NCBI GenBank assembly: GCA_032123355.1
Contig: JAQBFM010000215.1
Coordinates: forward strand, 9,325-73,324
Direction of reading: 5' to 3'
Origin: Lentisphaerales bacterium
GTDB lineage: Bacteria > Verrucomicrobiota > Kiritimatiellia > SPBP01
DNA length: 64,000 nucleotides
The translations under genes were made by a program, and so were the position numbers. Positions 1,406 to 64,000 of the stretch are shown here, in pieces. Under the pieces are notes generated by a model, which saw only the letters and a program-made list of their open reading frames with translations, had not been told where the DNA came from and searched no databases. Position 1 is the first letter of the stretch. Every line of letters starts with the position of its first letter.

Positions 1406-2776
1406 TCAGAACTCTGCTGGCTTCGGCTGATCCTTCAAGCATTCCGTGTATTTCTGCAGTTCCGAATCCGGTAGTTCATAGTCTGACAGTTTTCCACTAA
1501 GGAAAGCGTCATATCCCGACAAATCCATGAGCCCGTGGCCTGACCAGTTCATCAGAATGACCTTCTCTTTGCCTTCCTCCCTGGCCTGTTCAGCTTCCCG
1601 GATCGTCGCCGCGATAGCATGTGACGTTTCAGGTGCAGATATGAAGCCCTCCGTACGTGCCCAGAGCATCGCAGCCGTATAGCATTCAACCTGGTGCAGG
1701 GCCAACGCCTCGATCAGGTTCTCGCGAAGCGCATGGCTAACGAGTGGTGCCATGCCGTGATATCGCAATCCACCCGCGTGAATCGGCGGGGGTACAAACT
1801 TATGGCCCAGTGTGTACATCGGCAGAAGCGGAGTCATCTCTGCAGTGTCCCCGAAGTCATAGGAGAACGGGCCCCTCGTCATGGTTGGACATGCCGTGGG
1901 CTCCGTGGCAATGATCTTTATGTCCTTGCCGCTGATCTTGTCACAAACAAACGGGAAACTAATGCCGGCGAAATTCGATCCGCCGCCAGCACAACCTATG
2001 ATAACATCGGGATAGTCACCGATCTTCTCCAGCTGTTTCTTTGCCTCTAGACCAATTATGGTCTGATGCAGCATCACGTGATTCAGAACGCTGCCCAGCG
2101 AGTACCGCGTATCCTTGGAAGTAACGGCATCTTCTATAGCCTCGCTGATTGCAATTCCGAGACTGCCCGGAGTGTCCGGCATCTGCTCCAGAATTGCCCT
2201 GCCGAATTGGGTCGTGTTGCTCGGACTAGCAATACACTCCGCACCCCATACTCCCATCATTATCTTCCGGAACGGCTTCTGCTCAAAACTGATGCGCACC
2301 ATGTAAACCTTGCATTCCAGACCCATAAGCTGACAAGCAAACGCGAGAGCACTGCCCCACTGTCCTGCACCGGTCTCTGTCGTCAATCTCTTGATCCCGA
2401 ACTCGCGATTGTAGTACGCCTGCACCACCGCAGTGTTCGGTTTGTGGCTTCCAGGTGGCGATACGCCCTCATTCTTGTAGTAGATCTTTGCAGGCGTCTT
2501 AAGCGCGCGTTCAAGCCCTCGAGCCCTGTAAAGAGGCGTTGGCCGCCACATCTTAAGAACTCCCAGTATTTCTTCCGGAATATCAATCCAACGCTGGGTA
2601 GATACTTCCTGTTCGATAAGATTCATCGGAAACACCGGCGCCAACATGTCTGGCGTCAGGGGGTTGCCAGCTGGATCTACAGGTGGCGCCAGCGGATGCG
2701 GCAGATCCGCAGCCAGGTTATACCATTGCCTCGGAATTTCATCGTCGTTAAGAACCACCTTGATTTGCTCTGCCAT
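1406..2776 (-). CDS. trpB: TrpB2-type tryptophan synthase beta-like, PLP-dependent enzyme
   Basis: The full length resembles the TrpB family, including the motifs GSHKPN and [12 protein letters not shown] chose MAEQIK as the start; the GGGAGG RBS lies 9 nt upstream (revcomp of 2785-2793). Confidence 0.85.
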
Positions 2777-2995
2777 TGTCCATGCCTCCCTGTAAGAACA
2801 CCATTGTGCCTGAAACAAACTAGATTTCAAAGTTATGCATTTCGCATCGAGCCTACAAGAAGATTATCCCGCAATGCTTGACCCGAATCCCCCGCAATGG
2901 TAAGAATCGCGTACCTGACTCAAAGATTGCAGGCAACTCCTGCAATATCCGCGTCAGGTTCCGCTGGAAGTAGCGGGGAAAGAGAAGGTAGAACA

Positions 2996-3958
2996 ATGTA
3001 TAGACCCGAAATCACTGTTGTTGATTGCACAATCCGCGACGCTGGTCTCATGAATAACTCGCGATTCCCGGACGAGACAGTCGCCGCCGTTTATCGTGCC
3101 ATTTGCGAAGCCGGAATCCAGATCGTCGAGCTGGGCTATAAGAACAGTAAAAGGATGCTTTCTACCGATGACTACGGCCCGTGGCGCTTCTGCGATGAAG
3201 ATGCCCTGAGACGAGTTACGGAGGGCGTAGAATCACAGACAAAGATATCCGTCATGATGGACTCACACAAGGCGGAGGCGGAAGACCTGCTGCCTAAAGA
3301 CCAGAGCGTTATCGATATGGTCCGTGTCGCCACGTATGTCAAGGATGTGGACAAGGCAATATTGCTTGTGAATCACGCGAACGACAAGGGATACGAGACG
3401 ACAATCAACATCATGGCCATCTCTCACGCGCTCGACCGGGAATTGGACGAGGCTATCGATCAGATCGGAAGGGAGACCAATGTCGCCGCCTGCTACATCG
3501 TCGACAGCTTCGGCGCGCTCTATAGCGAGGACATAGATTACTACGTAGCAAAGTACCGCCAGCATCTTGGGAAGGGAAAAGAAATCGGAATTCACTGCCA
3601 TAACCAGCAGCAGCTCGCCTTCGCGAATACCATCGAGGGCATCATCAAAGGCGCCAACTACCTGGACGGAACCTTGCTGGGAACGGGCCGCGCTGCCGGG
3701 AACTGCCCGCTCGAACTGCTCCTCGGCTTCCTGAAGAATCCGAAGTTCTACATACGCCCCGTACTGGACGTCATTGGAAAATATATTTTGCCGTTGCAGT
3801 CCGAAATGGACTGGGGATACCACGTGCCGTACATGATCTCAGGCATGCTGAACGTTCATCCGCAGGAGTCCATGGATTTCATGGAGAAAGACTCATCAGA
3901 TCCGACAAGGCACGATTTCGTGAAGTTCTACGACGAGGTACTCGAGAGCATTCGGTAG
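2996..3958 (+). CDS. DRE-TIM metallolyase (HMGL-like / 4-hydroxy-2-oxovalerate aldolase-like)
   Basis: Motifs VVDCTIRDAG, HCHNQQQLAFANTIEG and DGTLLGTGRAAGNCPLE match the pyruvate carboxyltransferase fold. The start was chosen at MYRPEI, with AAGGTAG upstream. Confidence 0.6.
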   Translation: MYRPEITVVDCTIRDAGLMNNSRFPDETVAAVYRAICEAGIQIVELGYKNSKRMLSTDDYGPWRFCDEDALRRVTEGVESQTKISVMMDSHKAEAEDLLPKDQSVIDMVRVATYVKDVDKAILLVNHANDKGYETTINIMAISHALDRELDEAIDQIGRETNVAACYIVDSFGALYSEDIDYYVAKYRQHLGKGKEIGIHCHNQQQLAFANTIEGIIKGANYLDGTLLGTGRAAGNCPLELLLGFLKNPKFYIRPVLDVIGKYILPLQSEMDWGYHVPYMISGMLNVHPQESMDFMEKDSSDPTRHDFVKFYDEVLESIR

Positions 3959-3984: not shown

Positions 3985-5028
3985 CTATTTTCGTGAATCC
4001 GTGACAAAACGATTCTCCTGCCAGTAGCCATCCAGCATTCGCCCGTCAGAGTAGGTGTAGACTCCGCGACCATGCATCTGGCCCTCCCGCCATTGGCCCT
4101 CGTATTTCTCGCCGTCCGGGAAGATGTAGGAACCGAATCCATTCTTCTTATTCTGCCGCCACTCACCCTTATACTGCTCACCGTTCGAAAAACTGGTGAG
4201 GCCCGTACCGTGTTTCTGCCCGTCGACAAAATAGCCCTCATATCGTTCGCCGTCTCTAAAGACCAGGACTCCGTACCCATGCAAGTTTCCGTTTCTCATC
4301 TCCCCACGATACGTGCTTCCGTCCGGCAGTCTCTTCTCAACCTGCTGTTCGGCGGGACTTCCGGCAAACCGGCGCTCGGGATCACCCTGCGACACAGACT
4401 CAGAGAACTCCGTTCGCGCAGGTACCAGCCCCGCTCCCGGATCAGATTCCTTCGGCCGTACTGTCGATATTGTCGTAGCGGATTGGGGCCGCGTCTTGAG
4501 AATAGCCGTCATTTCAACCAAGTTATCATCCTTTGCCAGGCTGAGTGGAGTCGAATTGTCTTTCGCTCTGGATCCAGGATCCGCACCTCTGGCCAGTAGT
4601 ATGCGGGCAATCTCTCTGGCATCTTTCTTCACTGCCATGTGCAGGCATGTGTACCCGCGATCAGTAGCCGCATTAACGTCGGCTCCTGCATCCATGAGCA
4701 GCCTTGTAAGATCGATGGATCCGAAGACGATAGCACAGTGCAGAGGAGTGAACCCCATTTCCATCGCAGGATCCACGGCTGCCCTGTGCCTGAGCAGCGC
4801 CTTGACCATGTCAACGCGACCAGCCAGACACGCCAGATGCAGCGGAGTTGCACGCCCCTTCGACCTGGAGTTGACCATATTCGGTGCAGCCGATAGCATC
4901 GCCTCAACTTTCTGGACGTCGCCGGCCCGGACAGCATCGTGGATGCCGTCCGCATATGCCGCGACGGACCCGCACCAGACGAATGCCGACAGCAGACCTG
5001 CATATATATGAAATGATGATATCTTCAT
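3985..5028 (-). CDS. Secreted ankyrin-repeat + MORN-repeat protein
   Basis: Signal peptide MKISSFHIYAGLLSAFVWCGSVAAYA. There are ~4 ankyrin repeats (TPLHLAC..., FTPLHCAI..., YTCLHMAV...). At least three C-terminal MORN repeats follow (YRGEMRNGNLHGYG, YEGYFVDGQKHGTG, YKGEWRQNKKNGFG, YEGQWREGQMHGRG). Confidence 0.75.
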   Translation of the reverse strand: MKISSFHIYAGLLSAFVWCGSVAAYADGIHDAVRAGDVQKVEAMLSAAPNMVNSRSKGRATPLHLACLAGRVDMVKALLRHRAAVDPAMEMGFTPLHCAIVFGSIDLTRLLMDAGADVNAATDRGYTCLHMAVKKDAREIARILLARGADPGSRAKDNSTPLSLAKDDNLVEMTAILKTRPQSATTISTVRPKESDPGAGLVPARTEFSESVSQGDPERRFAGSPAEQQVEKRLPDGSTYRGEMRNGNLHGYGVLVFRDGERYEGYFVDGQKHGTGLTSFSNGEQYKGEWRQNKKNGFGSYIFPDGEKYEGQWREGQMHGRGVYTYSDGRMLDGYWQENRFVTDSRK

Positions 5029-5130
5029 GATCAGAACCGGCACGAATAATACTCCCCACCACACTCAAAGACAAGAGCCGAGATTCCGGCAGTGCTGTCC
5101 AATCTCGCCATGTTGTTTAGACAGCCAATA

Positions 5131-8100
5131 CTAGCCAATGTATTCCCTGGCGTTCAGGAACATCCTCAGCCAGGGCCCTTCCTCAACGGCGGCATCCCCG
5201 CAAGGATATGAACACTGCACCGCCCTGAACACGCGTTCAGGATGCGGCATCATTATGGTAGCCCGCCCATCAGTAGACGTCACACTTGTTATCCCACCCG
5301 GCGATCCGTTTGGATTCAAGGGATACCTCTCCGTGAGCATGCCACGGTTGTCCACATACCGCAATGAAACAAGACCTGCCTCCATCAACTCATCAACATC
5401 AACTCCGCTGTCGAACACGGCACGACCTTCCCCGTGTGCCACGGGAATGCCCAGTCGCGATCCCTCCATGCCCTTAAAGAAGATCGACAACGACCGAAGC
5501 ACCTCAACTGTCACATACCTGGCTTCGAACTGCTCAGACCTGTTGCGTTGGAACGTCGGCCAGCATTCAGCGCCCGGTATTATCTCACTCAGCTGCGCCA
5601 GCATCTGACAGCCATTGCATACCCCTAAAGAGAAGGTATCCTCACGCTGAAAGAAACGGGCGAACATCTTCTTCAGCTCCGCATTGAACAGTATCGAACG
5701 AGCCCAGCCCGAACCGGCGCCCAACACATCGCCATATGAGAACCCGCCGCAGGCCACCAAGCCGTTGAATTCGCACAGATCCACACGGGCCCGGTGCAAG
5801 TCCGTCATGTGGACATCGCATGCTGCGAAACCGGCTGCGTCAAAAGCCGCAGCCATTTCGACGTGACCGTTTATGCCCTGTTCCCGAAGAACCGCGATTC
5901 GCGGTCGATTGACCGAACCCTTCGCGGCGCGCACCGGCATGTGTGGATCATAGGTCAACTTGAAACTGAGACCCGGGTCAGTGTCGTCGAGGATGTTGTC
6001 ATATTCTTCCCTGGCACATTCAGGATTGTCTCGAAGCTCCTGCATCAGACAGGTCAGTTCAGACCATATCCGGTTCAACTCAGTCACCGAACGCGACATT
6101 AACTCGCGCCCGTTACTGCAGACAGTAATCACAGGCTTTCCGGTCGTCTCGCCGAGACGATGAGAGCAAGATGAAAGACCGTGACGCGCTAGAACAGCCA
6201 TAACCGCATCAATCTTGCCGGCCTCGATCTGTAGAACGGCACCAAGCTCTTCACTGAACAGCGAAGCAAGTGACTCAGAACCCAGCTCACCAATTTCGAG
6301 CTCAGCACCAACTCTTCCCCCAATCGCCATTTCCACGACCGTTGTCAGCAATCCACCGTCAGATCGATCGTGATAAGCAAGCACCATGCCCGCTCCTATA
6401 AGATCCTGAACCGCCGCGAACAATGAGGCCAGCAGCCTCGGATCGTCCGCATCCGGACAATCGCCCCCCTGCCTGCCATACGCCCGGGCAAGTGCCGAGA
6501 AGCCGAGCCTGTTCTTTCCGCTGCCAAGGTCAATGAGGACCAGATGGGAACCGGCTATGCGTTTCAAATCTGGTGTTGCCGTGCTGCGCACATCAAGAAC
6601 AGGAGCAAAAGAGCTGACTACCAGACTCATGGGCCCCGACATCTTCTCCTTCACGCCGTCGCTCGTCTCCCACAAAGTCCTCATCGATAGAGAGTCTTTT
6701 CCCACAGGAATGGACACCCCGAGCGCCGGACAGAATTCCATACCAATCGCCCTCACCGTATCGTAAAGATTCGCATCTTCCCCATCCTCGCCGCACGCGC
6801 ACATCCAGTTTGCCGATAGCTTTACCTTGCCGATATCACCAATCCAGGACGAACATATGTTTGTAATCGCCTCTCCCACGGCCATGCGTCCAGAACCCGG
6901 AGCTGACACAAGCGCAATGTCGCTTCGTTCTCCGATCGCCATCGCCGAACCCCGATACGACTTGTATGAAATAGTGACAACTGCCGCGTCTGCTATGGGC
7001 GTTTGATATGGACCCACCATCTGGTCGCGCGCCGTCATTCCCATGACGGTCCTGTCCGCAATGGTCACCAGGAATGTCTTATTCGACACGGACGGCATCC
7101 TCAGGACTCTCTCCACTGCCTCCTCGAGAGCAATTCCGTTCAAGTCTATAGGACCATGCTCCTCGCGAAGCCGCTCCACACATCGCTGCATCTTGGGCGG
7201 CTTACCAAGGAGAACCTGCAATTCCATGTCGATTGGTGTGTTCTTGAAATGGTCGTCGCAAAGTCTCAGACGCCCGTCCCCGGTGGCCTCTCCTATCACC
7301 GCTGCCGGACACCGTTCCCTGGAACAGAGGGCCAGGAACCGGTCAAGCCCCTCTTCGTAAACCGCTAGCACATATCTTTCCTGCGCCTCGCAACACCAGA
7401 TCTCCATCGGGCTCATCGATAACTCTTCATTTGAAATCTTGCGAAGCCAGAACACGCCTCCCGACTCAGCTACGAGCTCAGGACACCCGTTCGATAGTCC
7501 GCCGGCGCCAAGATCGTGGATGCTCACAATCGGGTTCAAATCATCGAGTGCAATGCACCCCTCAATGACTTCCTGGCAGCGCCGCTGCATTTCGGCGTTG
7601 TCACGTTGCACCGAGTCGTAGTCCAGATCCTCTACGTTGCTACCTGTTGCCATCGAGGAAGCCGCACCCCCACCCAGCCCGATTCGCAGCGCGGGTCCCC
7701 CTATCTGGATGATCTGCATGCCCTTTTCTATCTTCTGCTTGCCGGAATGCCTGCGCTTTATACTTCCCATCCCGCCCGCAATCATGATCGGCTTGTGGTA
7801 TCCGCGATATCGCCCATTGTAACGAAGTTCCAGCGTCTTGAAGAAACCCGTGAGTTGCGGCCTGCCGAATTCGTTCCCGAACGCCGCCCCGCCAATCGGG
7901 CCTTCAATCATGATTTCGAGCGCCGTTGCAAGTCGCGAGGGTCGTTCGGACTCATCTTCCTCCCATGCCATAATGTGCCCGGGTATCCGCAAATTCGACA
8001 CCATGAATCCCGCAAGCCCCGCTTTGCTCTTGCCGCCTCTACCCGTTGCGGCCTCGTCCCTGATCTCCCCGCCAATACCCGTAGCCGCCCCGGGATACGG

Positions 8101-59168: not shown

Positions 59169-60566
59169 ATGGCTGGGAAAAGCCATTGGCGGAGGCCGAG
59201 CGCTGCATCCGGACTAATTGCTGTAATGTTCGCCCTCCTGCTGTGCCGTCTGCCAGGTTCCGTCCGCGCGCAGCAGCGCGAACCGGAGAACGCATCCCCG
59301 CCCGGCTTTGACCTGGGCAGTCTGTTTGACAGGTCGGGCTCGATCTGGCAGTACTCACCCGACAAACTGCGCGAGGTCGTCCCTGCCGCTCATTTCACAC
59401 TGATGGCCGGCGCGCAGGATGAGATCTCGGCGGTCTCAACGGACCCGCACCTGGCGTTCGCTTCCATCCCCATCATGGAAACAACTGCCAGGTTCATATC
59501 GGGAGAACTGCAGGAGATGATTCTCTACGTGTATAACCAGGGCGATGCGGGAAATATGAATCGCAAGGTCTTCGACAATATCGTGGCTGACTCGCAAAAG
59601 CGTCTTTCTGACAACTTGAAGACAAAGCCTTCCCCGGTCATCACGGGGAACAGGCCTACCGGCGCGGTCTTAGAAAGTTGCTCGTGGGCTGCGCCGCCAT
59701 ACAGGGTGGACCTGGAATGGGGCTATACCAGAAGCAGGATTGTCAGCGGCACGAGGTTCCCTGCACGAACGGAGTATATCCGGATCCGTGCCACACCATT
59801 CGACGCGGCCAATGATCCTCGCCGGATCCTGAGCGGCAGCGCTCTGAAATCCGACCGTGCTGACCTTTCGGCCCGGCAACTGACAGGGCACGTGGCCAGG
59901 CACAAAAACGGTGACGTATTGATAAACGGCATTCCGATGGTCGACCAGGGCGAAAAAGGTTACTGTGTGGTTGCAACCGCCGAACGGATCTTTCGCTACT
60001 ACGCTGTTGATATCGATCAACATGAGCTCGCGCAGCTCGCCAGGACATCGGCCGCGGGTGGCACGAATCCGCAGATCATGCTCGATGTTCTCAGGAAGAC
60101 GGCCTCGACTCTCGGAATCCAGGTTCGTGAACACTACCGCCTCCAAGAACGGGAACTCGAAAGACTCATTGATCGCTATGACAGGGCTGCGCGCCGAGCA
60201 AGGATCAGGGGAATAGATCCGGAGGCGATCAACTCGCTCTCGGATCTATATGACCAGATGAACCTTCCAATTCTAAAGCAGGTCCGGCTCACTCCGCGCA
60301 GTGCGTTCACGCGGTTCATCGGGGACGTCAGGGAAAAGATTCAGGCCGGGATTCCGCTGGCCTGGTCGGTAATGCTCGGGAAGGTGGCAGAATCCGAAAG
60401 AGTGCTACAGACCGGTCCTCATATGCGGCTGATCATCGGGTATAATGATCATGATTCCGAAGTGATCTACAGCGATTCCTGGGGAGACAGGCATGCGTTG
60501 AAACGCATGGATCCTGGCAATGCATGGACAATAACCCTGGGCCTGTTCACGCTGGAACCTCGCTGA
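59169..60566 (+). CDS. Secreted protein with C-terminal papain-like (C39-like) cysteine peptidase domain
   Basis: A signal peptide is followed by a Cys block GEKGYCVVATAE and a His block HMRLIIGYNDHDSEVIYSDSWG. Together they resemble the Peptidase_C39-like fold. Confidence 0.4.
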   Translation: MAGKSHWRRPSAASGLIAVMFALLLCRLPGSVRAQQREPENASPPGFDLGSLFDRSGSIWQYSPDKLREVVPAAHFTLMAGAQDEISAVSTDPHLAFASIPIMETTARFISGELQEMILYVYNQGDAGNMNRKVFDNIVADSQKRLSDNLKTKPSPVITGNRPTGAVLESCSWAAPPYRVDLEWGYTRSRIVSGTRFPARTEYIRIRATPFDAANDPRRILSGSALKSDRADLSARQLTGHVARHKNGDVLINGIPMVDQGEKGYCVVATAERIFRYYAVDIDQHELAQLARTSAAGGTNPQIMLDVLRKTASTLGIQVREHYRLQERELERLIDRYDRAARRARIRGIDPEAINSLSDLYDQMNLPILKQVRLTPRSAFTRFIGDVREKIQAGIPLAWSVMLGKVAESERVLQTGPHMRLIIGYNDHDSEVIYSDSWGDRHALKRMDPGNAWTITLGLFTLEPR

Positions 60567-60676
60567 CAGGCGCATGGGCCCTGAAGCGACTGATGAGCAT
60601 GGTGGAGCTGTTCGAATGGAAGAAAAGAATCATCCAATATAGGCGGACAAGCGCGAGAGATGGAGCCCTGTTTCAA

Positions 60677-61279
60677 ATGCCGCGATTATCGAAGAAGTTC
60701 TATCTGGGATCCGATGTCATACGAATCAGTCGGCAACTGCTTGGCAAGCGGCTGATGACAAAGGTCGATGGATATCGCACCGGCGGCATCATTGTCGAAA
60801 CCGAAGCATACGCCGGAGTAACTGATCGTGCGTCCCATGCGTACGGCCACAGACGCACAGAAAGGAACGAAATGATGTTCCATGAAGGTGGCGTGGCCTA
60901 TGTCTACTTCTGCTACGGCATGCACTGGCTTCTCAACTTCGTAGCCAATCGCGCAGATGTGCCCGACGCGGTGTTGATTCGCGGGATCCTGCCGACCGTC
61001 GGCATTGAGACCATGTTGCGCAGACGAGGCAGGGAGAAGGTTGACCGAAGACTCGCCGGGGGGCCGGGAATGCTGAGCCAGGCGCTCGGGATCGACCGTT
61101 CCTTCAATGGCGAGAGCCTGCGGTCCGATAGGCTCTGGATTGAAGACACGGGCCGGAGGATTGACTCGCGGCGGATTGTCGCCTCGCCACGCATCGGGGT
61201 TGACTACGCCGGCCCGGACGCCCTGCGCCCCTGGCGCTTCACCATCAAGCCGAAGGGCCGGGGCATGGAAGATGTCTAG
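60677..61279 (+). CDS. mpg: DNA-3-methyladenine glycosylase (Mpg/AAG family)
   Basis: ETEAYAG ... HAYGHRRTERNEMMF ... YVYFCYGMHWLLN are hallmark Mpg-family blocks. Confidence 0.8.
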   Translation: MPRLSKKFYLGSDVIRISRQLLGKRLMTKVDGYRTGGIIVETEAYAGVTDRASHAYGHRRTERNEMMFHEGGVAYVYFCYGMHWLLNFVANRADVPDAVLIRGILPTVGIETMLRRRGREKVDRRLAGGPGMLSQALGIDRSFNGESLRSDRLWIEDTGRRIDSRRIVASPRIGVDYAGPDALRPWRFTIKPKGRGMEDV

Positions 61280-61330
61280 CCCTGAATGGCACTTTATGTT
61301 GCGCGCAACCTAAAGCGCCATTCAGGGCTA
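61276..61330. terminator. Stem-loop after mpg (15-bp perfect stem)
   Basis: CTAGCCCTGAATGGC ... GCCATTCAGGGCTAG. There is no T-tract, and it lies just outside the CRISPR array. Confidence 0.4.
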
Positions 61331-61361
61331 GCGCATAGTGCCCTCATAGAGCATCATGCTC

Positions 61362-61573
61362 CGGACCATCCCCACGCGCGTGGGGAAAACATGTGGACCC
61401 GGTTCAGGTGGTGTCGCTCGTCCGGACCATCCCCACGCGCGTGGGGAAAACAGCGCAGCCAGCGAAGTCGTCACCGTGAATTCCGGACCATCCCCACGCG
61501 CGTGGGGAAAACGAACTTTGTGACGTCGGGCGGAACCAACGACTTGGACCATCCCCACGCGCGTGGGGAAAAC
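61362..61573 (-). CRISPR. Type I-E CRISPR array: 4 repeats of 29 nt, 3 spacers of 32 nt
   Basis: Plus-strand repeat CGGACCATCCCCACGCGCGTGGGGAAAAC at 61362, 61423, 61484 and 61545; the last copy starts with T. Its reverse complement GTTTTCCCCACGCGCGTGGGGATGGTCCG has the canonical I-E shape. Spacers are exactly 32 nt. The orientation is inferred from the repeat and the cas genes. Confidence 0.9.
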
Positions 61574-61648
61574 CGCAGTATTTTGCGGAATCGCCTCGAA
61601 CCAAACACATCATATTGTATACCTCGCCTATTCGGAGTCAACCGCCGA
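61574..61648 (-). promoter_or_regulatory. Probable CRISPR leader
   Basis: A 75-bp AT-richer segment lies between the exonuclease gene stop and the first repeat, on the cas-proximal side. Confidence 0.45.
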
Positions 61649-62431
61649 TCAATCCGGCCACACAATTCGAGGTTGTTTCGGAAGCGACAGAGGTTTGAAT
61701 AACGGATAACGCCGCATACTGGTGTTGTAACTCTTGATCAACAGCAGCTCAAGGCTGAGGACGTCCTGAGTGTTGTAAGCAAGAAGCTTCGAGAGCGCTG
61801 TGGCGTCGCCACTCCGATGCAAATACCATAGGTGTACAGCTTCAAGTCCGTTAATAGCCTCTGGCACCTGCCTCCGAATACCTAGCAACCTCTCGCATAG
61901 TTTCAGACCGCCGGAGAAGCCCTGTGATCGCAAAGTGCGCGCGATGTCCAGATGGGCCATGTCCATTGGAAGATTCGACTTTCGACGAATGAACGGCAGA
62001 TCGAACCGCGATCCGTTGTACGTAACGACAAGCGAGAAAGAGCCAATCGCGTCAGCAAAGTCATCGAGGTTGACGCCGTTGACGAATGTTTGAACCGCTC
62101 TTCCGTCATAGAGAGCAATCGTCGTGATCTCCGAGTAGGCATCAAGACCAGTAGTCTCGATGTCCAGATACGCAATCCGCCCTTTGAAGTGCGGGTATAT
62201 TCGCGGGAACGCTCTGGCGGGAAGACGCTCAAGAAAATACGCCGCATTCAATTCTTCCAGCGCCCGCTGCGACGCCTGCAATTGTGCTCGCACTTGTTCG
62301 GCTTTTTTCAGAGATAACGGCGGTGCCGGACATCGCTCGTAGTGCGCCCACGTCAGAATACCCGATTCCCATAACTTGCCTTCCCCGCCTCCCGGCAGAC
62401 CCTTGAGATGACAGAAGGTGGCGGGTAGCAT
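61649..62431 (-). CDS. DEDDh 3'-5' exonuclease (DnaQ/RNase H-like fold), CRISPR-associated by position
   Basis: Exo I motif [10 protein letters not shown], plus downstream Exo II- and Exo III-like blocks ([17 protein letters not shown]). The start overlaps the cas2 stop by 1 nt (TGATG). Confidence 0.7.
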
Positions 62432-62751
62432 CAGTTGCAACCTTCCCGGGATGGTTCTTCTGTCGGTTCGGTGTCGCTCCATTTCTCGGCAATCAGGTTG
62501 AGCCCCGAGAGAACGACGTCCTTGCGGTTGGTTTCGCCGAACGCCTGGACGGAAAAGCCCTGCGAGGAGTTATCTGAAGCGATGACCAGCATGCCCAAGC
62601 CGGCGGCGTTTCGCCGAATGTATTCCAGCGTCTTTTCCCTGGTCCGCCGATTGACCGAGCCCACAAACACGTTCGGACGCGGTTCCACAAACCAACGCTT
62701 GAGCAGGCCGCGAATGGCGGGCGGAACATCGTTAGCAACGATTACGGTCAT
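62431..62751 (-). CDS. cas2: Cas2 (type I-E)
   Basis: MTVIVANDVPPAIRGLLKRWFVEPRPNVFVGSVNRRTREK... resembles E. coli Cas2/YgbF. GAGGA RBS. The ATGA overlap with cas1 implies coupling. Confidence 0.85.
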   Translation of the reverse strand: MTVIVANDVPPAIRGLLKRWFVEPRPNVFVGSVNRRTREKTLEYIRRNAAGLGMLVIASDNSSQGFSVQAFGETNRKDVVLSGLNLIAEKWSDTEPTEEPSREGCN

Positions 62752-63581
62752 TTTAACAGTTCCTCGATTTCCTTCGGCATACGCCGAAGAATCTTTTGTT
62801 GTTCGATCAAGGTCTTGAGCAGTTGGATCACCTCTTTTCCATCCGCTTCCGGTTTGATGCTGATTGTCTGAAAGGCGGCCTCCAGCGAGGTCTCGTGTTT
62901 GTAGAGGTCGGCCACATCGAACACGAACGGCATGGTTCCGCCCTGATGCACGAATCCGAGTTGGGGCAGATAACCCAGAGAGCAGACTACCGCCGTCGTA
63001 AGGGCATAGAGCGCCGCATTGGCGGCGGAGACGGAGCGGTTGATATTGTCGGCCAGATCCCATTCGCTCTTGTCGTACTGACGGCCTTTCCACGAAACGC
63101 CGTATTTCAGCCCCAGTTCGCCATAGAGCGCCTTCACCCGTTTGCCTTCCATTCCGCGCAATTCTTCCACGCCTTTGCTCATAACATCCACATCCGGAAA
63201 CCGCTTCACAAACATCCGGCGGGCCACTTCCGCCCGTCTCGCTTTGGAAGCATGTGTGGCGGCTTGGTGCAGCGCCCGTTCATTGGCATGCGTGGGCGTT
63301 GTACCGAAGGCATAGAAGCGCATGCCTTCCTCGCCCACCCAGCAGACTGGAGTATTTGAGTTGCTGCAGGCCTTGATGGCAGCATGCGTAACCGTTGTGC
63401 CGGGACCGAGCATCAGCACGCTGACCGTGGCCACCGGAATGCGGAAGATTGTGCGGTCAGCCCCGATCCACTTCACGCTGGAATCGTCAACCTCAAGCCG
63501 CCCGTGTTCAAGATAGAGCGGCGTCCACCGTTCATTGGCGGGTGTCAATGTCTCAAGCGGCGGTTTTTCGAAGACAGGCAT
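62748..63581 (-). CDS. cas1: Cas1 (type I-E)
   Basis: Strongly collinear with E. coli Cas1e (TVTHAAIKA..., VCWVGEEGMRFYA, ELRGMEGKRVKALY, YLPQLGFVHQGG, FVFDVADLYK). Confidence 0.9.
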   Translation of the reverse strand: MPVFEKPPLETLTPANERWTPLYLEHGRLEVDDSSVKWIGADRTIFRIPVATVSVLMLGPGTTVTHAAIKACSNSNTPVCWVGEEGMRFYAFGTTPTHANERALHQAATHASKARRAEVARRMFVKRFPDVDVMSKGVEELRGMEGKRVKALYGELGLKYGVSWKGRQYDKSEWDLADNINRSVSAANAALYALTTAVVCSLGYLPQLGFVHQGGTMPFVFDVADLYKHETSLEAAFQTISIKPEADGKEVIQLLKTLIEQQKILRRMPKEIEELLK

Positions 63582-63599
63582 GGAAAGATGATCGATCTG

Positions 63600-64000
63600 T
63601 TATTCGGCGACTTTTTGATTGATCCTGCGCACAGGCCATGGACGCGTGCCGGCGTAGGATGCAGGCACGCCGTCACTCCAAGTGTCGTTGCCGGCGGTGA
63701 AAGTCGACTCCTCAATACGGGTGCATTGGGCAATCGGTTTGCCGTCAAGAAGCGACTTTTCCGCTTCCTCGCGCGAATCAAACAGTCTCCGGCAAACCGG
63801 TTCAGCCGGAATGCAGTTCTTGCGACCGAACCAGATGCCCCAGACCGGATCTTCAAGAGCCCGTCTCACCTTTTCCAATAACTTCCGCTCGCCTTCGAGA
63901 ATAACGCCGAACTTTGCGTCAAGAAGATACTGGCGGTGTGAGATCACCGCGTCCTTCTTGATTCCTCCACTTGCCGCGCGTGTCTTCATCACGGTATGGA
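63600..64000 (-). CDS. cas5: Cas5e/CasD C-terminal part (5' end outside window)
   Basis: RQYLLDAKFGVIL and LEKVRRALEDPVWGIWFGRKNCIP align with the E. coli CasD blocks REYLCDASFTVAL and LEKAVLKPRYTPYLGRRSCPL. The ORF is open to the window edge. Confidence 0.5.
   Translation of the reverse strand, partial: HTVMKTRAASGGIKKDAVISHRQYLLDAKFGVILEGERKLLEKVRRALEDPVWGIWFGRKNCIPAEPVCRRLFDSREEAEKSLLDGKPIAQCTRIEESTFTAGNDTWSDGVPASYAGTRPWPVRRINQKVAE

Follow-up and report, generated by a model that had tools for sequence, protein, structure and literature searches.

A PF13482-family DEDDy exonuclease gene between cas2 and the CRISPR leader of type I-E loci, a candidate stand-alone trimmer of prespacers

Type I-E CRISPR systems lack Cas4 and, to our knowledge, the trimming of prespacers and the removal of the protospacer-adjacent motif (PAM) have been worked out in such systems solely for a fusion of Cas2 to a DEDDh exonuclease and, in vitro, for the host exonucleases of E. 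coli. We report the analysis of a stretch of 64,000 nucleotides from a Lentisphaerales bacterium (contig JAQBFM010000215.1), referred to throughout as the window, which carries part of a type I-E operon with a gene for a 260-aa exonuclease between cas2 and the CRISPR leader. In the Cas2-DEDDh (Cas2-DnaQ) trimmer-integrase found in certain type I-E systems, those of Megasphaera NM10 (PDB 8FYC) and S. thermophilus CRISPR4 being examples, the exonuclease is a domain of Cas2, whereas in the window it is encoded by a separate gene. Cas2/DEDDh trims prespacers and its authors (Wang et al. 2023, PMC10284694) expect the same, in trans, from unfused exonucleases; they also list standalone DEDDh exonucleases as widespread ancillary CRISPR components. 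The host enzymes DnaQ and ExoT of E. coli likewise stand alone as 3'-5' exonucleases and work in trans on prespacers bound by Cas1-Cas2 of type I-E (PMC10284694). That type I-E adaptation can employ a DEDD exonuclease is already an established concept, from the Cas2-DEDDh fusions and from DnaQ/ExoT. A further enzyme of relevance is MrfB of B. subtilis, which degrades single-stranded DNA, gapped DNA and 3' overhangs, and whose aligned active-site residues have been probed by mutagenesis (PMC11194089).

On the evidence presented below we think it rather likely that the product of the 260-aa gene of the window is a 3'-5' DNA exonuclease, stand-alone and dedicated to CRISPR, which is made along with Cas1 and Cas2 and trims the 3' overhangs of prespacers in trans. 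An initial annotation of this DNA had described a type I-E module for adaptation in which a DEDD exonuclease is encoded by a free-standing gene between cas2 and the leader, and had given the order on the minus strand as a partial cas5e at the window end, cas1e, cas2e, the exonuclease open reading frame (ORF), leader and array. Both descriptions hold, with every feature at the place assigned to it. The shared nucleotide between the ATG of the exonuclease and the stop codon of cas2, also part of that annotation, can be read directly: the A of the ATG (62431-62429) is common to the TGA of cas2 (62433-62431), within ...AAC TGATG CTA. Opened mechanically, the exonuclease ORF begins 17 codons further upstream, at 62482; since every homologue of the exonuclease starts with MLxxTFCH, the start that gives 260 aa is taken as the real one.

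The 260-aa protein is a DEDD 3'-5' exonuclease of RNase H-like fold with an intact active site, belonging to PF13482, the MrfB/YprB family (COG3359 group). Its match to PF13482 (RNase_H_2) reaches 101.9 bits against a cutoff of 22 (E 4.5e-29) and covers positions 1-161 of the 165 of the profile. The description of the enzyme as 'DnaQ-like' stands only in part: it is a DEDD exonuclease, but not one of the DnaQ family. RNase_T (PF00929), the profile of that family, falls below threshold, with 15.2 bits against a cutoff of 24 (E 0.033) over residues 89-107 only. In the same Pfam scan DNA_pol_B_exo1 was likewise below threshold (E 0.012), NCBIfam holds no model for the protein and returned weak, spurious matches only, and the Cas-associated 'DEDDh' profile of PADLOC gives a weak and partial match (E 6.4e-6) confined to residues 122-169. 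In an alignment of 42 homologous sequences the catalytic residues of all three exonuclease motifs, which were expected to be intact if the annotation was sound, are invariant: D90 and E92 of Exo I (DIETTG, within residues 87-97), D144 of Exo II (NGxxFDxP), and Y219 and D223 of Exo III (AYNxQD), together with L96. The Exo III motif is of the form Y-x3-D, not the H-x4-D of DnaQ, which places the enzyme in the DEDDy class. A profile search of the PDB returned MrfB as the sole clear sequence relative (8.5e-9 over residues 83-235), and in the alignment of hidden Markov models D90, E92, L96, D144, Y219 and D223 pair with MrfB residues D107, E109, L113 (the wedge), D172, H258 and D262. The structure model of the protein is confident (mean predicted local distance difference test score, pLDDT, 94.8) and consists of an N-terminal helical region (residues 1-83), for which no Pfam match was found even at E 10 and which may resemble a helix-hairpin-helix motif, followed by the core (87-231) with its last helix (212-238) and the end of the chain at 260. 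The chain carries a conserved C-terminal tail, LPxQPxxxWP. Its closest folds are the proofreading domains of the family B and family A polymerases; the Cas2-DEDDh chain ranks 36th amongst the fold matches. The protein is predicted to be enzymatically active, with DNA 3' overhangs as its substrate.

Support for a role in CRISPR comes from the recurrence of the arrangement of cas2, exonuclease and leader. In ten distinct loci, counting the window and L010 as one, the exonuclease gene lies immediately 3' of cas2e, and the exonucleases are 50-81% identical to that of the window: P0001 of L001 (81%), P0005 of L005 (66%), P0013 of L006/7 (61%), P0015 of L008/9 (59%), P0020 of L016 (61%), P0021 of L095 (52%), P0026 of L097/98 (53%), P0036 of L101 (50%) and P0032 of L017 (50%). 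A scan of genome contigs with the single protein returned only five loci, L010 being among them. Two of the ten loci have -1 nt between the stop of cas2 and the start of the exonuclease, four have -7 nt, and the others have +3, +13, +15 and +151 nt; wherever there is downstream sequence the array begins 24-82 nt past the exonuclease stop. The same family of repeats, at a strict period of 61 nt, is found in L005, L016, L095, L097 and L101, where arrays reach 37 or more repeats; that arrays of 25-37 or more repeats hold to so strict a period implies that adaptation in these systems is active and well measured. The Cas2e of L017 is just 29.5% identical to Cas2 of the window, yet is still a clear Cas2e (Pfam 1e-36), so that the pairing of exonuclease and cas2 spans diverged type I-E systems. 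Ten of the 15 sampled members of the clade (at least 48% identity) lie directly 3' of cas2e, while none of 81 distant homologues (35-46% identity; 67 of them with more than 400 nt of upstream sequence) has a type I-E cas1, cas2 or cas5, or an array of at least three repeats, nearby. When the neighbouring ORFs of about 90 loci were compared all-against-all, the only recurrent genes were cas genes, besides generic response regulators in six loci. The linkage of the exonuclease to cas2 is not due to chance. The gene has the attributes of a cas-linked gene, being recurrent and position-specific in diverged loci, with the linkage absent from the wider family, and the survey of homologous loci places the exonuclease where the initial annotation had it, between cas2 and the leader.

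Two of these loci, L005 and L017, differ at the end of the gene. The exonuclease ORF there is 276-277 aa long (2681-3511 in L005, 363-1196 in L017) rather than the usual ~260, the usual stop codon is absent and the frame enters the leader, leaving 24-31 nt to the first repeat.

The exonuclease has also diverged in step with the adaptation proteins. Across nine linked loci (all but L017, where there is no cas1) its pairwise identity correlates with that of Cas1 (r 0.78) and of Cas2 (r 0.82). The gene is under purifying selection, with a ratio of nonsynonymous to synonymous substitution rates (dN/dS) of 0.11 for L006/L008, where dS is 0.79 and unsaturated, and of 0.06 for the window and L001; dS is saturated in most pairs and the value for L006 and L008 is the only trustworthy one. 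Cas1 of the window is 73-88% identical to the Cas1 proteins of the other exonuclease-linked loci, and Cas5 of the linked loci is 41-65% identical to that of the window. In five of them (L001, L005, L006, L008 and L016) Cas1 is 84-88% identical to the Cas1 of the window and always exactly 277 aa long, with Cas5 (41-65%) and the exonuclease (about 58-80%) far more diverged. This pattern indicates that the adaptation module is either under much tighter constraint than the genes around it or has been exchanged between loci.

In the mechanism that we propose, the exonuclease would be co-expressed with Cas1 and Cas2 because its gene belongs to the operon and its start codon overlaps the stop codon of cas2. 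A prespacer duplex would be bound by Cas1-Cas2 and its protruding, single-stranded 3' overhangs cut back by the exonuclease to the edge of the Cas1-Cas2 footprint, giving integration-ready ends of a defined length, which would account for the uniform 32-nt spacers. The end on the PAM side, shielded for longer by Cas1, would be trimmed with a delay and would thereby set the orientation of the spacer. The exonuclease would presumably also contact Cas1-Cas2 physically. More tentatively, and as a possibility to which we give somewhat less than even weight, a clade of DEDDy enzymes resembling MrfB and the proofreading domain of PolB may have entered type I-E adaptation in an event separate from the recruitment of the DnaQ-type domain of Cas2-DEDDh, forming with Cas1-Cas2 a three-protein trimmer-integrase that acts in trans. 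If so, these exonucleases would constitute a new family of Cas protein with its own docking interface, their unlinked close homologues would be escaped or trans-acting copies, and they would offer a natural system in which to study how an unfused exonuclease is coupled to an integrase.

Several observations weigh against a dedicated role in prespacer trimming. The sample of loci was drawn through the homologues of the exonuclease rather than by independent sampling of type I-E loci of the same Cas1 clade. Four close homologues, P0010 (60% identity to the exonuclease of the window), P0012 (60%), P0016 (59%) and P0022 (53%), all with intact catalytic residues, lie in unrelated chromosomal contexts with no visible CRISPR locus, so the protein need not be accompanied by cas genes. 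Linked members are mixed with unlinked ones in a tree, the linked P0020 clustering with the unlinked P0012 and P0010 (the tree is a neighbour-joining tree with midpoint rooting and no support values, and is used solely to show this interleaving). The wider PF13482 family is not linked to CRISPR and some of its members are fused to repair helicases. No fusion of Cas2 to an exonuclease of the PF13482 family was present among the 120 best matches of a concatenated Cas2 and exonuclease query, and two long members of the family with N-terminal extensions, P0243 and P0284, have no Cas2 domain. Lastly, the exonuclease evolves faster than its partners, with a mean pairwise identity of 58% against 80% for Cas1 and 76% for Cas2. 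The four unlinked homologues may be relocated copies, survivors of the loss of cas genes, or trans-acting genes that serve a type I-E locus elsewhere. A further relative, P0031 (48% identity), from a metagenome-assembled genome (MAG) of the Deltaproteobacteria, lies ~5 kb from the type III genes cas10/cas6, on the opposite strand (L102, 1-9056); no cas1, cas2 or array is found in the 9 kb around it. Its proximity to type III genes may be due to chance or may reflect a looser tie to another type of CRISPR system.

The same linkage would be seen if the exonuclease served CRISPR at some other step, whether by converting the products of Cas3 into precursors of prespacers in primed adaptation or by clearing 3' flaps and repairing gaps at the leader-repeat junction after integration. 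MrfB, the characterised member of the family, is an exonuclease of DNA repair with activity on nicked and gapped DNA too, and relatives of the window protein are fused to MrfA-like and DinG-like helicases, Cas3 being a helicase encoded in the same operon. We nevertheless regard this as unlikely: the gene is always found with cas1-cas2 at the leader end and not with cas3, in nine of the ten loci its start and the stop of cas2 overlap or abut, and prespacer trimming is the only role that has been demonstrated for a CRISPR-encoded DEDD exonuclease in type I-E (PMC10284694). In none of the linked loci does a helicase gene adjoin the exonuclease, cas3 lying about 8 kb upstream.

A second alternative, which we hold to be less probable still, is that in one lineage a general DNA-repair gene of MrfB type was caught between cas2 and the array, without any function specific to CRISPR. 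The family at large is big (5,707 matches in 90% clusters and 1,821 representatives at 50% clustering) and not CRISPR-linked; there are also the four close homologues in ordinary chromosomal contexts, and a gene for a methylpurine DNA glycosylase adjoins the array of the window. Against this, the gene occupies the same position in the ten loci, where Cas5 has only 41-65% identity to that of the window, Cas1 is up to 27% different and Cas2 in one case has an identity as low as 29.5%; the gene is internal to the locus, upstream of the leader, and its start codon overlaps the stop codon before it; it has diverged in step with Cas1 and Cas2; and no other neighbour is conserved save the generic response regulators of six loci. 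Position, codon overlap, co-divergence and the lack of other conserved neighbours led us to reject a simple hitchhiker as the main explanation.

That the enzyme acts on RNA, trimming the 3' ends of CRISPR RNA (crRNA) or its precursor as the DEDDy enzymes RNase D and Rrp6 trim theirs, is very improbable, since its best fold matches are the proofreading domains of DNA polymerases, MrfB, the enzyme closest to it in sequence, is a DNase, the gene stands with the adaptation genes rather than with cas6e, and the crRNAs of type I-E retain a 3' hairpin bound by Cas6e and undergo no trimming.

The features around the exonuclease gene are collected in Table 1.

Table 1. Features of the type I-E locus and its flank in the window
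Feature	Position	Strand	Evidence and remarks
cas5e (casD), partial; C-terminal 132 codons, 5' part beyond window end	63600-64000	-	Pfam PF09704 Cas_Cas5d 1.7e-17; TIGR01868 8e-15; PADLOC Cas5e 8.6e-20
cas1e, 277 aa	62748-63581	-	TIGR03638 cas1_ECOLI 1.4e-92, 309.8 bits vs cutoff 215.6
cas2e, 106 aa	62431-62751	-	TIGR01873 7.4e-23; PF09707 2.2e-23; ATGA overlap with cas1
DEDDy 3'-5' exonuclease gene, 260 aa, PF13482 / MrfB-like	61649-62431	-	ATG shares one base with cas2 TGA
CRISPR leader, 75 nt, with sigma-70-like promoter TTGACT-16-TACAAT at 61641-61614	61574-61648	-	promoter scan 10/12 matches
CRISPR array, four 29-nt type I-E repeats and three 32-nt spacers, period 61 nt	61362-61573	-	repeat GTTTTCCCCACGCGCGTGGGGATGGTCCG
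Long hairpin, 21-bp stem, past last repeat	61280-61327	-	83-nt stretch RNA fold -46.2 kcal/mol, z -6.5
Methylpurine DNA glycosylase gene, convergent, adjoins array	60524-61279		PF02245 3e-61

The locus is of type I-E: cas5e, cas1e, cas2e and the array are in the window and the remaining genes of the operon are found on L010, a contig of an uncultured Planctomycetia MAG which is near-identical to the window across the common cas region (Cas2 100%, Cas1 99.6%). The order of the L010 operon is cas3, cse1, cse2, cas6e, ORF179, cas7, cas5, cas1, cas2, exonuclease, and cas5e directly precedes cas1 because cas6e stands ahead of cas7 in this variant of type I-E. The complete cas5e (228 aa) is at 7079-7765 of L010 and is 100% identical to the window over the part that the window contains. 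ORF179 (5471-6010 of L010), the serine-rich ORF of 179 aa of this operon, has no Pfam match and may not be a real gene. The TTGACT and TACAAT hexamers of the leader, and CTGCGG ahead of repeat 1, are kept in the leaders of L001, L006, L008, L016 and L101. The leader-proximal repeat (61545-61573) terminates in ...GGTCCA and the remaining three in ...GGTCCG; in type I-E the PAM supplies the last base of the repeat during acquisition. The hairpin past the last repeat, which lies between the array and the convergent glycosylase gene, probably serves as a bidirectional terminator.

Additional genes interrupt some of the linked operons. In L001 a DUF1016/YhcG nuclease of the PD-(D/E)xK type is encoded between cse1 and cse2 (2694-3899), and in L006 and L008 a HEAT-repeat protein of 323 aa is encoded between cas6e and cas7 (4084-5055), of which L097 retains a 95-aa remnant between cse1 and cse2 (3435-3722). 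HEAT repeats accompany the PF13482 exonuclease both as a separate gene, in these operons, and as a fusion, in P0211. The latter combines HEAT repeats with an MrfA-like helicase; amongst the other fusions of the wider family, P0192 carries a DinG-like helicase and P0264, P0283, P0289 and P0324 carry DUF429. Such fusions to helicases and to DUF429 are consistent with an ancestral role in DNA repair. In plasmid and phage collections only distant homologues from haloarchaeal megaplasmids (31-36% identity) and one weak phage match were found, with no cas context in the single megaplasmid locus inspected.

What appears to be new here is the assignment of the exonuclease to PF13482, as a DEDDy enzyme resembling MrfB and the PolB proofreading domain, the evidence for a recruitment separate from that of the DnaQ-type domain fused to Cas2, and the definition of a clade with a fixed arrangement of cas2, exonuclease and leader. 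Our literature search found no paper that connects PF13482, COG3359 or DEDDy enzymes to cas2, and a 2025 paper on the classification of CRISPR systems leaves exonucleases unmentioned. The earlier suggestion that the split arrangement has no well-characterised precedent was too broad, given the standalone DEDDh exonucleases already listed as widespread ancillary components (PMC10284694), and is fair in the narrow sense that no biochemically characterised stand-alone case was found in the literature. A conserved exonuclease of another DEDD family, encoded in the operon yet unfused, would mean that at least two independent solutions have arisen to the need for a 3'-5' trimmer. As a single small gene that can be deleted or mutated without the pleiotropy of DnaQ, it would offer a genetic and biochemical handle on trimming in trans, could supply a compact part for engineered recorders based on spacer acquisition, and would provide a probable function for one clade of a large family otherwise annotated as 'ribonuclease H-like domain-containing protein'. 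The finding is useful to the biochemistry of adaptation, and confirms an existing model rather than overturning one.

Linked genes of a comparable kind have been catalogued by Altae-Tran et al. 2023 (PMC10910872), whose clusters include UAS-45, 'Acquisition (RNaseH)' (representative GCA_016876015.1 VGOD01000184 7922-8489), and UAS-48, a 366-aa 'Cas2 + 3'-5' proofreading exonuclease' at IMG 3300019992 Ga0197015_1040 6129-7227, given without description. UAS-45 and the ancillary DEDDh entries resemble the gene of the window in being catalogued as exonucleases or RNase H-fold proteins with linkage to cas loci or adaptation modules, and carry no assignment to PF13482 or DEDDy and no mechanism. Compared by description only, UAS-45 may be the PF13482 exonuclease family of the window, in which case the family has already been catalogued.

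Amongst characterised enzymes, MrfB (YprB), the mitomycin C repair exonuclease of B. subtilis (PDB 8UN9), shares PF13482 with the window protein at an identity of about 23%. The two are alike in both acidic residues of Exo I, the Leu wedge and the Asp residues of Exo II and Exo III, as well as in an N-terminal insertion ahead of strand 1. They differ in that MrfB is a DEDDh enzyme, with His258 at the position aligned to Tyr219, and has a C-terminal TPR domain, whereas the window protein has no TPR match in Pfam and ends soon after the core. Their genomic contexts, repair for MrfB and CRISPR for the window exonuclease, also differ: MrfB has a partner gene for the helicase MrfA (YprA), and the window gene adjoins cas2 and the CRISPR leader. 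The exonuclease of Cas2-DEDDh belongs to the RNase_T/DnaQ family and has a His as its general base, in contrast to the PF13482 family and the Tyr of the window protein, which has in addition the N-terminal helical region of 83 residues. The different family, the Tyr base, the extra N-terminal region and the low rank of the Cas2-DEDDh chain amongst the fold matches together suggest that recruitment of the window enzyme would have been independent of, and parallel to, the Cas2-DEDDh fusions. DnaQ and ExoT of E. coli, finally, are the products of housekeeping genes elsewhere in the genome, whereas the enzyme of the window is encoded in the cas operon and inherited with it.

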